From the NCBI RefSeq assembly GCF_022846255.1, contig NZ_AP025682.1: a DNA stretch of 64,000 nucleotides; one strand, written 5' to 3'. Origin of the DNA: Escherichia coli (GTDB lineage Bacteria; Pseudomonadota; Gammaproteobacteria; Enterobacterales; Enterobacteriaceae). Positions 3,001 to 12,000 of the stretch are shown piece after piece (positions within the stretch are counted from its first letter, which is position 1; each line of letters opens with the position of its first letter). Made by a program: the position numbers.

Positions 3001-6000
3001 AAAATCATTATTGAAGTACCATCATTAATACCATCATAGGTATTGTTCTCCTTTGGCAACAGTTCTTTGATATCGAAATACTTTAACGAACTTTTTATGA
3101 CATCATACTTTGAAGAAAAAATCACATACTGATTTTCATCCAGTACATCTTGCAAGACAAGGTATAAAACAGGGACTACGATTAAAAATAGCAAAGTCAT
3201 TCACTAAATGAATTCAAAATCAGTGATGTTCTTATCTGCAAGAATATAATATATTTAAAAGATTATAAGCAATATATAAATAATAATATAGCTTTAAAAA
3301 AACACACATGAATTAGAAGTTAAATACATTAATTAAAGAAACAAATAAGTAAGAATTTTGTTTTTAAATAACTCATGCAAACGCATCGTTTATTTATATT
3401 AAAGGAAAATGATGAAATCCAATCTAAATTTAAATAGCTACATTACAAACGAATAGAAAAAGAAGCATTTTCCATGTTAAACTACTATCTTGGTGAAGAC
3501 AGGGGGTATAGCCTTCTGCGGTAGCCTACGCTCTTCGAATGCAAAGCAAGAAAATAACCTTTATAATCAAATTGTTATGCAATGCGCTTGTAGAGCAAAG
3601 GTATCTTAAACGAATAGGTTTAACAGTTAAAGCCTCTTTACATAGGCTGAACAAGGGCAGTACTTGAAAATGATAAAATTGGGGTATGTTTAAAATTATG
3701 AATGCCCATAGTTTAGAGATGAGAAAAGAGTTAGGAGCATATTATACTCCAAGTGCTCTTAGTCAAGTGATGTCAGATTGGGCAATTAGAAGACCAACTG
3801 ATAAAATACTTGAGCCAAGTTTTGGAGGCTGTGGCTTTTTAGAAAGCTGTGAAAAGAGCCTCATGGAGATAGGCTGCATAAACCCAATGGAAAATTTATT
3901 TGGGGTTGATGTAGACCAAAAAGCCTTTGATACTCTCAAAAAAAAATATGGGCATTTATTAATAAAAAAACATTTCATTTTAAGTGATTTCATTAACGTA
4001 TTTCCAAAAGATTTTGGCATTGAAGATTTTGAGGTTATCATTGGGAACCCTCCTTATATCTCTATGCATAATATGAGTTATGAACAAAGGAAGTCCTGTG
4101 AAAAAGTTTTTGCTGACTCACCTTTTAAAACAAAAACATTAGGACGCAATGCAAGTCTTTGGGGGTTTTTCTTACTCCATGCATTAAGCTTCATTCGAGA
4201 AAATGGACGAATAGCGTGGGTATTACCGAGTAGTTTTTTAAATGCCTATTATGCGAAAGAGCTTATAAGAATTTACAAAAATCATTTTAACCATCTAAAA
4301 ATAATAAAGATAAATGAAAGACTTTTCAAAAATGAAGGTGCCGATGAAATGTCAGTACTTTTTTTATGCGATGAGTTTCACAGGACACCTATCAATAATG
4401 GATACGTTTCAATTGGATTTGCTGACACATTAAATGAACTAACCAGCATAATGACTGGAACTAAAGAAAACAAATTAAATAGCTCTGAAAATTACAAATA
4501 TAATATATTAGATATTGACACATTAAATGTGATATCGTCTATAACAGAACATAAGTACAGTTTAAAAATACAGGATATTGCTGATATAAAGATTGGGATG
4601 GTAACCGGCATGAACAACTTCTTTATATTGGATCAAAATCAAATTTTAAAACATAATTTAGACAATAAACATTTTAGACCAGTTATTTCACGATTTTCAC
4701 ATTTGAAGGGAATTCACCACACATTAAAAAGACATACGAAGTTAATTGCAGACAATAAAAAAGGATTGCTATTACACGTCAGTCCAGATGATTTATATGA
4801 AAAACATAGTCCGTTGAGAAAATATTTATCACAAGTTGATAGAAAAGAACGAGTCAAAAACCGCACATTCAAAAAACGAAAAAAGTGGTTTCAACCAGAT
4901 GATGGTATTTACCCAGACGCATTTTTTTCATATATGGTTCATGAGTTTCCCAGAATGATATTAAATAAAGGGAAAGTTAACTGCACTAACTCAATACATC
5001 GTATCTTTTTCAAAGATATAGCATCTAATAAATTAAAAAAAGCATGTTGCATATCTCTTTTATCAACATTTTCACAACTTTCTGCCGAACTTGAAGGTCG
5101 GTCATATGGCTCAGGTGTGCTAAAAATAGAGCCTACCGCAGGAAAGAACATATCATTCTTAATTAAAGATGATTTAATACACGAGTTAAGCAACTTAAGT
5201 AAAGAAATAGATCAATTGCTTTTAAATAATGAAACAAGCAATGCCACTGCTTTAGTTGATAAGTTTTTTGTTGATAAGGGACTAATTAGCTTAGATGAAT
5301 TGAAAAGTCTTAAAAAAGGGTTATTCAGATTAAGAAAAGATCGATATAAAGGGGTCAAAAATTATGAGTGAAGATATTCTTTTTTTGAAGGATAAGATGA
5401 AAGCCCTCCTGGATAATGAGGCTCTCGATTATGATAAAGTATTAGAAACAGCAGTAAAAATCACCGAAAAAGACAACAACAATATTAGATTTTCTGTAGA
5501 TGCGAATTTAGTTAGAAGATTAGGTGAGCAGTTAGTCGCTAAAAAAACTACTGCTGTCAGTGAATTGGTGAAAAATGCTTATGACGCAGATTCGACATTA
5601 GTAAATGTATATTTCGAATTGAACGAAGCAAATCCTCGAATAGTCATATTCGATGACGGCACAGGTATGTCAAAGGAAGATATTATCAATGGATTCATGC
5701 GAATAAGCACAAGTGAAAAAGAAGATAACTCTGTTTCAGAACGATATCAGAGACTAAGAGCAGGTAGAAAAGGTATTGGGCGTTTTTCTACACAGCGATT
5801 AGGAAATTATTTAAAAATAATTACCAAGCAAGAAAATGAAGAGTTAGGATATTTAATAGAAATTAACTGGCAGCAGTTTTCAAAAAAGAAAAATATATCC
5901 TTCATTGCTAACACTATCTCAAAAATCGATGTGGATTTCATTCATGGAACAAAAATAATAATAGAAGATCTGAATGATAAAGATTGGTCTGATGGGAACA

Positions 6001-9000: not shown

Positions 9001-12000
9001 AAATACATTTGGAACTTATATTAAAAAGTGAAGGCCCTTATGAATTTTCGAAGATTAAAGAACTTTCAGGGCAATTACGACTTAAAGCTGAGTGGATCAA
9101 TGACACAACAGAAAAAATTGAGATAAAAACATCACATAGTGCTTGGCATTTTGATTATCATGTTCCTCAAATGGGGGATGGCGTAAATTCATTTACTCAT
9201 CCTCAATTCCATTTACAAAATGGAGGAAACAGGCTGACTGATAATTTAAATGACTATGGAGAGTTAATGATTCTTGATGCTCCAAGACTACCTTTACCTC
9301 CTATGGATGTGATATTAGCCATTGACTTTATTATTTCAAATTTCTTTGGTTCTATTTGGCAACAAGCATTATGTGATTCAGAATACATTGATGTAGTTAA
9401 AAGAGCACAAAAAGCATGGTGGAAACCTTATTATGAAGGTATAAGTCAACACTGGTCTGGCAATGGCTCAGGAATATCCAATATCCTAATTCCAAACCTT
9501 CTGTAGTGTATCAAAATCTGTTAACCATCTCCAATTACGAATAGCAATATTTATATAAAACTAATTTTTTATTTTAAACAACTTCAGCAAGGGCTAACTC
9601 TCAGCATCTCCTTCGGTGATACTTTGAGTTGCTCCTTGTTTTTTCGCCCTTTGGTTGAAAAAATTAAAAGCAAAACCAACCCTATACATTGACTTTTTCA
9701 GCATCTATCATATAAATAAAATAAGCATAATGGACATGCTTATTTTACTTTACTATATGAAAGGAGTTCATATGAATGATAGGAATCATACTTTTAATAA
9801 GTTCGAGCCATTCAGAAGTTGTAGCTATGAAAATTTTACTTCTGCTAAAACACTCTCCCAGCAGACACGTTCTCATTGTATTAGTATCAGATTAAATGAT
9901 GCCGAGTTATCTTACGTTGATGGCTTACGAGAAGATCTCAACCGTGCTGTTTGGATACGTATGTCAGCATTGAATCGTCTCCCTTCCAAAATTCCTGAAA
10001 TAAATCTAATTGTCTGGAAAGACCTTGCCAAAGCATCTCAGAATCTGAATAACCTCGTTCAGCATCTCAACACTAAATCACACGATAGTCCTTTTACTAT
10101 CACCGAAATTTATACGGTACAAAAAAGAATAAAAGCACTAAGAGATGCCCTTCTGTCAGCAAATCGATCTGTCAGTGATAAATAATGAAAGGGATGCAAA
10201 AAATCCGCAGAGGAAAGAGTTTTGCTGGTGTCGTCCTCTATGCGTTAAAGCCCGGTTCTCATCATAAAAAAGACCCTATCGTGATCGGTGGAAATATAAC
10301 GATAGTTGGCAATGCCGCTAAAGATCTGATCGCTGAATTTGATAGCACCAAACAGCTTCGCCCTGACGTGCAAAAGGCTGTTTGGCACAACTCGCTTCGC
10401 TTACCTAAAGGTGAATCACTAACGGCTAAACAGTGGTCTGAAATAGCAGATGATTACATGTCCCGCATGGGCTTCTCTGAAACGCATCTCAGATGCTACG
10501 TCCTACATGACGACGAAGATGGCCAGCACATCCATATCATCGCCAGCAGAGTGTCTCTTGATGCCGGAAAGCTCTACCTCGGCAGGAATGAGAACCTGGC
10601 AAGCACGAGAATAATTCAGCAACTTGAAAGAAATTACAATCTGACAAGAACCAAAGGGCCAGGAGCTAAAGCATCTACATCTTCTCTTTCCTCTAAACCG
10701 AAACATAAAAAATCACGTAATGAGGCTATGTTAGAGGAGAGAACTGGTGAACCATGCCCTAAATCCATCATCCAAAGGGCTATAGATTCGATAACATTAA
10801 ATCCTATAGCAATTGATGACTTCGTTGAAAAGCTGAATAGCATAGGGATTACGGCGAAAAGCAATATTTCTTCAACTGGCAAGATGAATGGATTTTCCTT
10901 TGAATGCAAAGGTGTTGTGTTCAAAGCTTCCCAGCTTGGCAAGAAGTATAGTTGGAAGAACCTGGAATCAATGATTTCAATGAATTACAACTCACACATT
11001 GGTGATGAAAAACCTGTCATCCCTGAACCTGCTGCCCATCGCAGCAACGAAGCTGTCATACCTATAGTGGAAGACTATTCTGATGAAAAGATTTACCCTG
11101 AGATAAGGGTACCCTTACCAAGACCTGACACAGCGCCCACAAAACCTACAAGCATGACAATGCGTTGGATCGCAACCATACCTTATCTTGTGAGTGTTAT
11201 TAGCGCACTTAAAACGATGCGTATCCCCTTTCTAAAGGCGTTCAATGGCCCAAGGAAGTTCTTTTCCGTGTCCATGATTCACCTGTCCTCTGTAAGCCTG
11301 AAACAGACCAAAACGAATAATTTCAAACCAAAAAGTTCCCACCAAAAGGCCCACAAGCCCCTTCTCCCCTGATTTCTCCACAGATAAACGATCGTTATAA
11401 TCGATCGATTTATTTATATTGATAGTCAATAACAATCAATAGGTAAATAATCGATCGGTACAAGCAATTTGCTATGTCCTTAGAAGTGTTCAAAATGTAC
11501 TTTCATGCATAAATCGGATAATAGGTTGATTTTACTAGCCTATTTTTCTATCCACGTATCGAACATGCAGGGACTGAAGTATGAGATATCTCATGATGAA
11601 GCGTGTAATGTTAGCAATCCTTCTTCCGTTTATTGTTGGATGTTTATTTGGTGCTAAAGCATTATCAGAGTATTGGGTTGTGTGGTTTTTTGTTTGTGCA
11701 ATGTTGATGATCACAGCCTGGGGCGTGTGGTTAAAAAATAAAAACAGAGGTTCCAGCTTCAGCTACCTGAATGATAATGAAGATGGTGTATTTATCTACA
11801 AATTTCATAATCAAGAGATGCGTTTAGATAAAGCCAAAAAAGAGCTTTATTTAAAAGATGGGTTAAACGAAAAAACCTACACTTTTTCCGATGTTGAAAG
11901 CTGGGAATATAAAATTAGCACAGGTGGTCAGATCCTCACTTCAGGTCTTAACCCTACAACTAACTTGATTAACAATAAGATTCTTGGTGAAAACATTAAT

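Follow-up and report, generated by a model that had tools for sequence, protein, structure and literature searches.

Why should a DNA methyltransferase gene be joined in one operon to a histidine-kinase-like signalling pair and an unannotated protein? This question is raised by the four-gene operon at positions 3686-9506 of a 64,000-nt stretch of Escherichia coli DNA (contig NZ_AP025682.1, assembly GCF_022846255.1), which is called the window here. We found that the last three genes of the operon (P2, P3, and P4) are a fixed three-gene module, which is new here, and that this trio is usually accompanied by a DNA-modification module. We propose, with a probability of about 0.55, that the operon is a restriction-modification (R-M)-like system against phages or mobile genetic elements that signals by phosphorelay.

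The operon consists of four intact, translationally coupled open reading frames (ORFs) on the + strand. P1 (3686-5371, 561 aa), the modification module, encodes an N6-adenine DNA methyltransferase of the gamma class, whose C-terminal target-recognition domain is of the M.Eco57I type. P2 (5364-7673, 769 aa) encodes a soluble GHKL ATPase fused to a histidine-kinase core, P3 (7660-8763, 367 aa) a receiver domain with an output region, and P4 (8763-9506, 247 aa) a member of an unannotated family. P1 and P2 overlap by 8 nt (ATG at 5364, TGA at 5369-5371), P2 and P3 overlap by 14 nt (ATG at 7660, TAA at 7671-7673), and P3 and P4 meet in TAATG, so that the coordinates agree with the four same-strand genes and the junctions given in an earlier note on this DNA. 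The P3 start at 7660 is backed by RefSeq and by the alignment of homologues; a mechanical ORF call gives 7642. The maximal Kyte-Doolittle (KD) value, KD(19), was below 1.6 for each of P1, P2, P3, and P4, i.e., all four are predicted to be soluble proteins. In addition, apart from cross-matches of the methyltransferase domain, no HsdR, HsdS, PglZ, BrxC, or nuclease model of PADLOC, NCBIfam, or Pfam matched any of the four proteins, as the earlier note had claimed.

To follow the trio through other genomes, a P4 profile was scanned over one genome per species, which gave 63 loci; ORFs were called in these as well as in previously collected loci and were then searched with profiles of the window proteins. 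Contiguous P2-like, P3-like, and P4-like genes on the same strand were found in 57 of the 66 non-duplicate loci holding a P4 relative. The other nine were two loci of the same order with a frameshifted (split) P2, six loci cut by a contig end, and one lone fragment. Counted this way, 59 of 60 informative loci hold either the complete trio or a frameshifted one. Its hosts belong to Bacteroidota, Gamma-, Alpha-, and Epsilonproteobacteria, Desulfobacterota (including Geobacter), Chloroflexota, Nitrospirota, Verrucomicrobiota, and Leptospiraceae. Furthermore, the complete four-gene order recurs in Rahnella, Vibrio, Geobacter, Pseudomonas, Chloroflexota, and others, plus eight proviral contigs. The neighbourhood comparison that the earlier note had suggested recovered the same order in dozens of unrelated genomes. 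Together with the start/stop overlaps, this conservation upholds the view of the operon as a single functional unit. An orphan methyltransferase lying by chance beside an unrelated signalling pair and an unrelated ORF can practically be dismissed, since the overlaps and the recurring four-gene order speak against it and the conservation already refutes it.

The modification partners were counted in 62 trio-bearing loci (the 59 above, the window, the near-identical copy in E. coli TUM11353, and one duplicate metagenome locus). Genes for SspB, SspC, and SspD adjoin the trio in 32 of them (PADLOC E-values 2e-104, 0, and 2e-91). A P1-like methylase lies directly upstream of the trio, as in the window, in 14 loci, and a longer P1-like methylase lies directly downstream in 11. 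Five loci have no modification neighbour; three of these are cut by a contig end (L025, L044, and L046), and in the other two, L016 and L067, the sequence extends upstream but no modification gene was recognised there. Thus, with 32 Ssp and 25 methylase neighbours, the trio stands beside a DNA-modification module in nearly every informative locus, and the two chemistries are unrelated. This linkage is a signature of modification-based self/non-self discrimination. In a neighbour-joining tree of P2, the Ssp-linked forms and the methylase-downstream forms each formed a single clade, and the methylase-upstream forms, including that of the window, were basal. As judged from the P2 sequences, these partner-coherent clades indicate a few ancient module swaps, followed by co-evolution of P2 with the type of its partner.

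PbeA/PbeC-like genes often follow the trio in the Ssp-linked loci, and SspE does so once, in a locus where the trio lies between SspE and SspDCB. In L005 and about 17 other Bacteroidota loci, the order is SspB-SspC-SspD, the trio, an unknown protein of about 190 aa, a PbeC-like SMC-type ATPase, and a PbeA-like helicase/PLD protein; in L005 the unknown protein has 158 aa and falls into a separate cluster. Islands of the L005 type appear to hold two candidate restriction modules served by a single phosphorothioation module. Siccibacter colletis (L012) and L047 each have a P2-like gene broken into two ORFs, and the methylase of L012 is split too; both loci are likely decaying copies of the system. 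A distant version is carried by plasmid pTH2c of Rhizobium sp. TH2 (L071/L074), with a divergently transcribed P1-like methylase, a kinase, and remote P3 and P4 proteins. The remote P3 aligned with an hhalign probability of 91% (E 9e-7), and the remote P4 (E 3e-4) keeps the signature HFD..HPxFHxQ..PR..HPxD. This version has a fifth gene, annotated as a GIY-YIG nuclease (Pfam DUF4357), and its neighbours are a UvrD-type helicase gene and a superinfection-immunity gene.

The locations of the operon are also informative. A P2-like prophage of Rahnella bruchi carries the four genes between gpA, its replication gene, and its portal gene, and in Vibrio the operon adjoins a cI-type gene. IMG/VR contains 12 proviral loci with P4 relatives; the trio is present in 11 and the methylase with the trio in eight. 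One of these proviruses has the operon flanked by the integrase gene on one side and the cI repressor gene on the other. Such hotspot positions of prophages have been shown to hold anti-phage systems (Rousset et al. 2022, PMC9122126). These genomic contexts argue for a defence function.

The assignment of P1 to the gamma-class N6-adenine methyltransferases, made earlier from the sequence, was confirmed by Pfam matches (N6_Mtase 1e-15, Eco57I 3e-13, M_Eco57I_C 7e-19), by a full-length match to the PADLOC model MTase_II (2e-89), and by motif I (FGGCGF at aa 46) and NPPY (at aa 121).

P2 begins with a MutL/MORC-type GHKL ATPase domain (aa 63-187; 5550-5924, + strand), which matches HATPase_c_3 (3.3e-22) and contains E67..N71, D97xGxG, and G134RKGIG. 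It is followed by a region (aa 260-520) with a conserved YRNGFKV.PYG motif, by the DHp domain or H-box (aa 528-585; 6945-7118, + strand) with the candidate phospho-acceptor His537-Glu538 (FTH537E), and by the catalytic ATP-binding (CA) domain (aa 641-759; 7284-7640, + strand). The CA domain matches HATPase_c (1.4e-17) and has an N-box (aa 648-656), a G1 box (D684xGxG), and a G2 box (G720xGxG), and more than 60 NCBIfam histidine-kinase models match this region. The DHp domain gave a weak match to HEF_HK (PF19191; independent E-value 0.0069, 17.3 bits, aa 528-585 on model positions 2-59 of 67), HisKA was not matched in the Pfam search, and the sequence search against the PDB aligned it with the DHp domains of HK853 and CpxA. 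In the same search, MutL/Mlh1 matched the N-terminus (MutL 5e-6) and histidine kinases matched aa 523-761. No transmembrane or hydrophobic segment was found in the KD profile. The earlier description of P2 as a soluble protein with a MutL/MORC-like GHKL ATPase and a histidine-kinase core holds. Furthermore, conservation among 56 P2 homologues reaches at least 95% for the GHKL motifs (E..KN.YDA, DDG.GM, GRKGIG), the HE of the H-box, and the CA boxes, with the GHKL motifs and the HE practically invariant. The kinase and receiver motifs are real and under purifying selection, and are not the chance matches that the earlier note had allowed for.

Among P2-P4, the PADLOC matches were limited to the N-terminus of REase_II, to MzaB, and to TmtA, all of them on the GHKL domain alone. 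P2 also matched NF050001, the BbrUII/HgiDII restriction-enzyme family, with its N-terminus only (aa 42-206, 2e-27). In a Leptospiraceae metagenome-assembled genome (L046, 2-4921), the P2-like protein has an N-terminal extension of at least 870 aa, which matches TmtA of PADLOC at model positions 651-1335 (2.5e-88). This fusion may hint at a working partner of the GHKL kinase; nothing relevant on TmtA was found in the literature searched.

The receiver (REC) domain of P3 (7660-8055, + strand) contains the complete Asp-Asp/Asp/Thr-Ser/Lys quintet with the candidate phospho-acceptor Asp59, and the D-D-D-S-K set is conserved in the P3 alignments. The output region of about 235 aa (8056-8763, + strand) has a helix-turn-helix (HTH)-like LAARLGI..S.DW in its helical part, an RWW motif, and a C-terminal FW..C ... 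PLDP.DG ... PWQ subdomain, and these motifs are conserved columns in the family alignments. P3 had no match in Pfam even at E<=10, and none in the PDB sequence-profile, NCBIfam, PADLOC, and PHROG searches. Response_reg_2 (PF19192) matched none of 21 proteins (P3 and 20 diverse relatives), in a library that holds PF19191 but gave no positive control for PF19192. P3 is receiver-like with a large domain of its own, as the earlier note had put it with an estimate of about 250 aa. Word-seeded searches yielded just 14-18 relatives of P3, whereas the exhaustive hidden Markov model (HMM) search and the genome scan showed far larger families. No P3 relative was found in the GenBank phage genomes, and only one, from Hymenobacter, was found in plasmids.

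The HTH-like helix pattern of this output region raises a different explanation, in which P2 senses an intracellular cue such as the nucleotide pool or the state of DNA and phosphorylates P3 as a transcription factor; P3 would then tune modification or other defence genes (epigenetic control), and P4 would be an accessory, e.g., a phosphatase or modulator. It is in agreement with the trio having no recognisable nuclease, with the Ssp-linked loci often already having restriction partners (PbeA/PbeC-like or SspE), and with the regulatory role that the authors of the 2021 study (PMC8011034, see below) proposed. However, there is no restriction gene to regulate in the element of the window or in the prophage-hotspot operons, a DNA-clamp ATPase of the MutL/MORC type, such as those fused to restriction enzymes, would rarely be needed in a regulator, and the presence of the operon in defence hotspots of prophages points rather to an immunity function that is self-contained. 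We regard this regulatory circuit as the main rival explanation, although an unlikely one.

P4 provides a further point on this question. The exhaustive HMM search gave 780 cluster representatives of its family at E<=1e-3, nearly all of about 250 aa, whereas a word-seeded search had found only six relatives. In the alignment of 91 sequences, H129, H146, P147, H150, G154, G155, P174, R175, and P180 are invariant, and W128, D131, D182, D188, and N193 are near-invariant (D131 and D182 at least 90%). They form the signature WH129xD131xH ... H146PxxH150xQxGG ... PR175xxxPPxD182. An invariant His/Asp/Arg constellation is typical of a catalytic site, and P4 is found in 59 of 60 informative loci; both facts speak against a mere accessory of a regulatory circuit. 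Furthermore, H129, D131, and H133 alternate along a predicted strand, and this suggests a metal-binding or catalytic site. P4 is probably a metal-dependent enzyme of a new fold. More specific ideas drawn from the motifs, such as a 2-oxoglutarate/Fe(II) HxD..H triad, a His-Me finger, or a metallo-hydrolase, are speculation backed by no search.

The earlier note had described P4 as an unknown protein of 247 aa, and this stands. No match was found in Pfam, NCBIfam, PADLOC, PHROG, or the PDB (sequence-profile), and the relatives, up to 91, behaved likewise save for a weak match to DUF2290. P4 and nine other family members had no PADLOC match even at E<=5. The structure prediction that the earlier note had called for was made; the AlphaFold2 model is of moderate quality (predicted local distance difference test, pLDDT, 67) and gave no fold match. 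The DUF2290 match concerns one of 91 relatives in Pfam (6.8e-3), and one family member bears this name in UniProt. DUF2290 is the uncharacterised non-helicase partner in the validated Rst_Helicase+DUF2290 system, which occupies the same prophage hotspots (Rousset et al. 2022, PMC9122126). Membership of the operon in that system was rejected, as P4 itself has no DUF2290 match and the operon has no helicase. The resemblance is a lead, not a relationship.

Residues 181-199 of P4 form a strongly hydrophobic, conserved helix (KD 1.54). This helix, and a fold that matched nothing known and leaves the choice of target wide, would suit abortive infection. In that case a phage cue would be detected by the GHKL kinase, P4 would be switched on through the phosphorelay as a toxin whose target is not DNA, and the methylase or Ssp module would have a different role, such as addiction or protection from a co-resident system. 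Detocs is said to provide a precedent for phosphorelay-based abortive defence. Nevertheless, the trio lies beside a modification module of one or the other chemistry in all but two loci that are not cut by a contig end, and Detocs and other abortive-infection models were unmatched in PADLOC. We consider this explanation quite improbable.

We return to the reading of the operon as an R-M-like system, which could work as follows. P1, as inferred from its family membership, would methylate adenines at its own recognition sites on the host DNA and so mark self; in other lineages SspBCD would mark self DNA instead. The trio would be the restriction side. P2, as a soluble dimer, would engage DNA through its MutL/MORC-type GHKL clamp, which is the same kind of domain as in the BbrUII/HgiDII enzymes and the paraMORCs. 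On DNA lacking the cognate modification, which would be the signal sensed, ATP-driven closure of the GHKL domains would be relayed through the long helical linker to the DHp/CA core. The kinase core would autophosphorylate His537 and pass the phosphate to Asp59 of P3, which is the presumed direction of phosphotransfer. Finally, phospho-P3, through its HTH-like DNA-binding output, or P4, or both, would damage or block the unmodified DNA, and the effector would lie in P4 and/or the C-terminus of P3. In type I and type III R-M systems and in BREX, recognition comes from the modification enzyme. By analogy, recognition may come from the modification enzyme itself here as well.

Several points weigh against such a system. 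The HTH-like motif in the P3 output suits a transcription factor equally well, and one trio would have to read both N6-methyladenine and phosphorothioate. No nuclease is recognisable in the trio by PADLOC, NCBIfam, Pfam, or fold searches, and the additional GIY-YIG-type gene of the distant Rhizobium version could mean that the trio itself has no nuclease. In addition, the system is missing from PADLOC v2 and NCBIfam, and the literature searched contains no experimental data on it. A wider claim, that P2-P3-P4 is a widespread module of phosphorelay-gated restriction, a generic reader and executor plugged onto both N6-adenine methylation and phosphorothioation, is put forward tentatively, as somewhat less than an even bet.

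Should the trio prove to be a restriction module, no R-M-type system before it would have placed a histidine-aspartate phosphorelay between recognition and attack, and a bacterial function would be found for MORC-like GHKL ATPases that are linked with kinases. Its partnership with methylation or phosphorothioation offers a handle on self/non-self discrimination in Dnd, Ssp, and BREX-like systems without a classical endonuclease. The P4 family, about 780 sequence clusters that carry no annotation, shows what looks like a catalytic site of His, Asp, and Arg and could represent a new effector fold. Because it is absent from PADLOC and NCBIfam, the module is invisible to current defence-system annotation. 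The E. coli copy lies on a small mobilisable island and is directly clonable and testable.

How far is the system already described? Soluble HK-like proteins of the architecture GHKL (HATPase_c_3)-DHp-HATPase_c, paired with receiver-like proteins beside R-M methylases, were reported in a computational study (Bellieny-Rabelo, Pretorius & Moleleki 2021, PMC8011034). The systems of that study, which was computational only, mainly have C5 methylases with Vsr or HNH nearby; descent from paraMORCs was suggested and a regulatory role was proposed. P2 has the architecture of their group 1 (HATPase_c_3, a His-Glu DHp, and a C-terminal HATPase_c) and is likewise soluble, its receiver-like gene with the D-D-D-T/S-K set lies directly downstream, and a DNA methylase is adjacent. 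P2 clearly belongs to that broad kinase-like family. For instance, the kinase of the Campylobacter pTet plasmid is about 26% identical to P2 over more than 90% of the length of P2; the genes after it are one for a response regulator of 331 aa and a dcm gene in convergent orientation. However, HEF_HK matched P2 only weakly, P3 and its 20 relatives did not match Response_reg_2, the pTet locus has no P4, and the Campylobacter-type response regulator aligned with the P3 profile across the receiver domain only (hhalign probability 8%). The modification partners differ as well, since the window system uses an N6-adenine methylase and its relatives an N6-adenine methylase or SspBCD, and P4 is always present.

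R-M operons with GHKL ATPases of the paraMORC type are known from Iyer, Abhiman & Aravind 2008 (PMC2292703). P2 shares with the paraMORC/MORC and BbrUII/HgiDII proteins the intact N-terminal MutL/MORC-type GHKL motifs I-III, the methylase neighbour, and the mobile island. However, it has a histidine-kinase core and a receiver partner in place of a C-terminal nuclease or a helicase partner. Membership of P2 in the BbrUII/HgiDII family was rejected, as the score was 96 bits where the cut-off is 550, and of 659 model positions only 2-170 were covered. In the literature searched, only the 2021 and 2008 papers were relevant to HATPase_c_3 in defence or to GHKL proteins with response regulators in R-M systems. 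The earlier note had called the operon undescribed. This is no longer true of the GHKL-kinase/receiver-like pairs near R-M methylases or of the paraMORCs, but the P3 family, the obligatory P4, and the alternative pairing with SspBCD are not in the prior literature and libraries searched (the supplementary tables of the 2021 paper were outside the comparison). The system is a three-gene form of the kind sketched computationally in 2021, in which neither the receiver-output protein nor the putative effector is annotated.

A second comparison concerns the phosphorothioation-based systems SspABCD-SspE, SspFGH, and Pbe (Xiong 2020; Wang 2021, PMC8092258). The trio takes the position of the restriction partner beside SspBCD in the 32 related loci; it is a restriction module of three genes that pairs with a modification module and can coexist with other restriction partners. 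However, the copy in the window uses methylation, and there is no SspBCD in the window. In Wang 2021 (PMC8092258), SspF is described as a Walker A protein and SspH as FtsK-like. The trio is ruled out as a form of SspFGH, for these two proteins do not fit a GHKL kinase, a REC protein, and P4. No Ssp, Dnd, or Pbe model matched any protein of the trio, and no report of sspBCD linked with a histidine kinase was found in the literature searched.

The earlier claim that the operon is not a type I, II, or III R-M, BREX, Pgl, DISARM, or Detocs system was borne out, as their models were unmatched or far below cut-off. For BREX/Pgl, PglX reached 18.8-22.8 bits against a cut-off of 500 on the methylase core only, and PglZ, BrxC, and PglW were unmatched in P2-P4. 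MADS was rejected too, with 24 bits against a cut-off of 720 for NF047738 (the MAD2 methylase) and the other mad models unmatched. Detocs resembles the trio by functional analogy, as it uses a soluble histidine kinase and a receiver-domain protein for defence instead of gene regulation; its PADLOC models DtcA, DtcB, and DtcC were unmatched. Detocs, attributed to Millman et al. 2022, is said to have no methylase, GHKL/MORC head, or P4, and its effector is reportedly a receiver-PNP fusion.

The operon lies on a mobile element at leuX. A perfect 18-bp direct repeat pair bounds an element of 18.1 kb; its distal, att-like copy (2946-2963) is the left end, and the proximal copy (21036-21053) is inside the 3' end of the tRNA-Leu(CAA) gene leuX (21030-21114, - strand; ARAGORN), the integration site. 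The window is 99.3% identical to E. coli TUM11353 over 2890-22329; homology starts at 2890, and the sequence to the left differs between strains. Thus, from the repeats and from the end of homology at the left edge, the operon is the main cargo of a leuX-integrated element. The element also encodes a relaxase and three tyrosine recombinases. The GC content is 0.335 for the operon, 0.348 for the island, and 0.507 for the flank to the right of leuX. The earlier picture of an AT-rich leuX island with integrase and mobilisation genes is therefore correct. The operon was found in one of 5426 complete E. coli genomes, and Salmonella, Proteus, and Pantoea carry copies at 84-99% identity. In TUM11353, the direct neighbours of the element are a type I R-M system and an AbiE locus.

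Directly 3' of the operon lie a hypothetical gene of 137-176 aa (9655-10185) and a gene for a MobP/MobB-type relaxase (10185-11372); with this relaxase downstream of the operon, the element is probably mobilisable and not self-transmissible. Three consecutive genes on the - strand (13757-17905) encode a 543-aa DNA-binding protein, a 441-aa tyrosine recombinase of the integrase_1 family, and a 401-aa Xer-like tyrosine recombinase. They resemble a recombinase-trio mobility module, with a weak GmtY match (8.6e-5). A phage P4-type integrase is encoded separately at 19593-20840. Just outside the element, a truncated integrase (1949-2818, - strand; 288 aa, model positions 4-270 of 413) is probably the remnant of an earlier occupant of the leuX island. 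Finally, the L-idonate cluster (idnK and idnD-idnO-idnT-idnR) at 22330-27420 is missing in the otherwise collinear TUM11353, and its presence or absence is ordinary core-genome variation.

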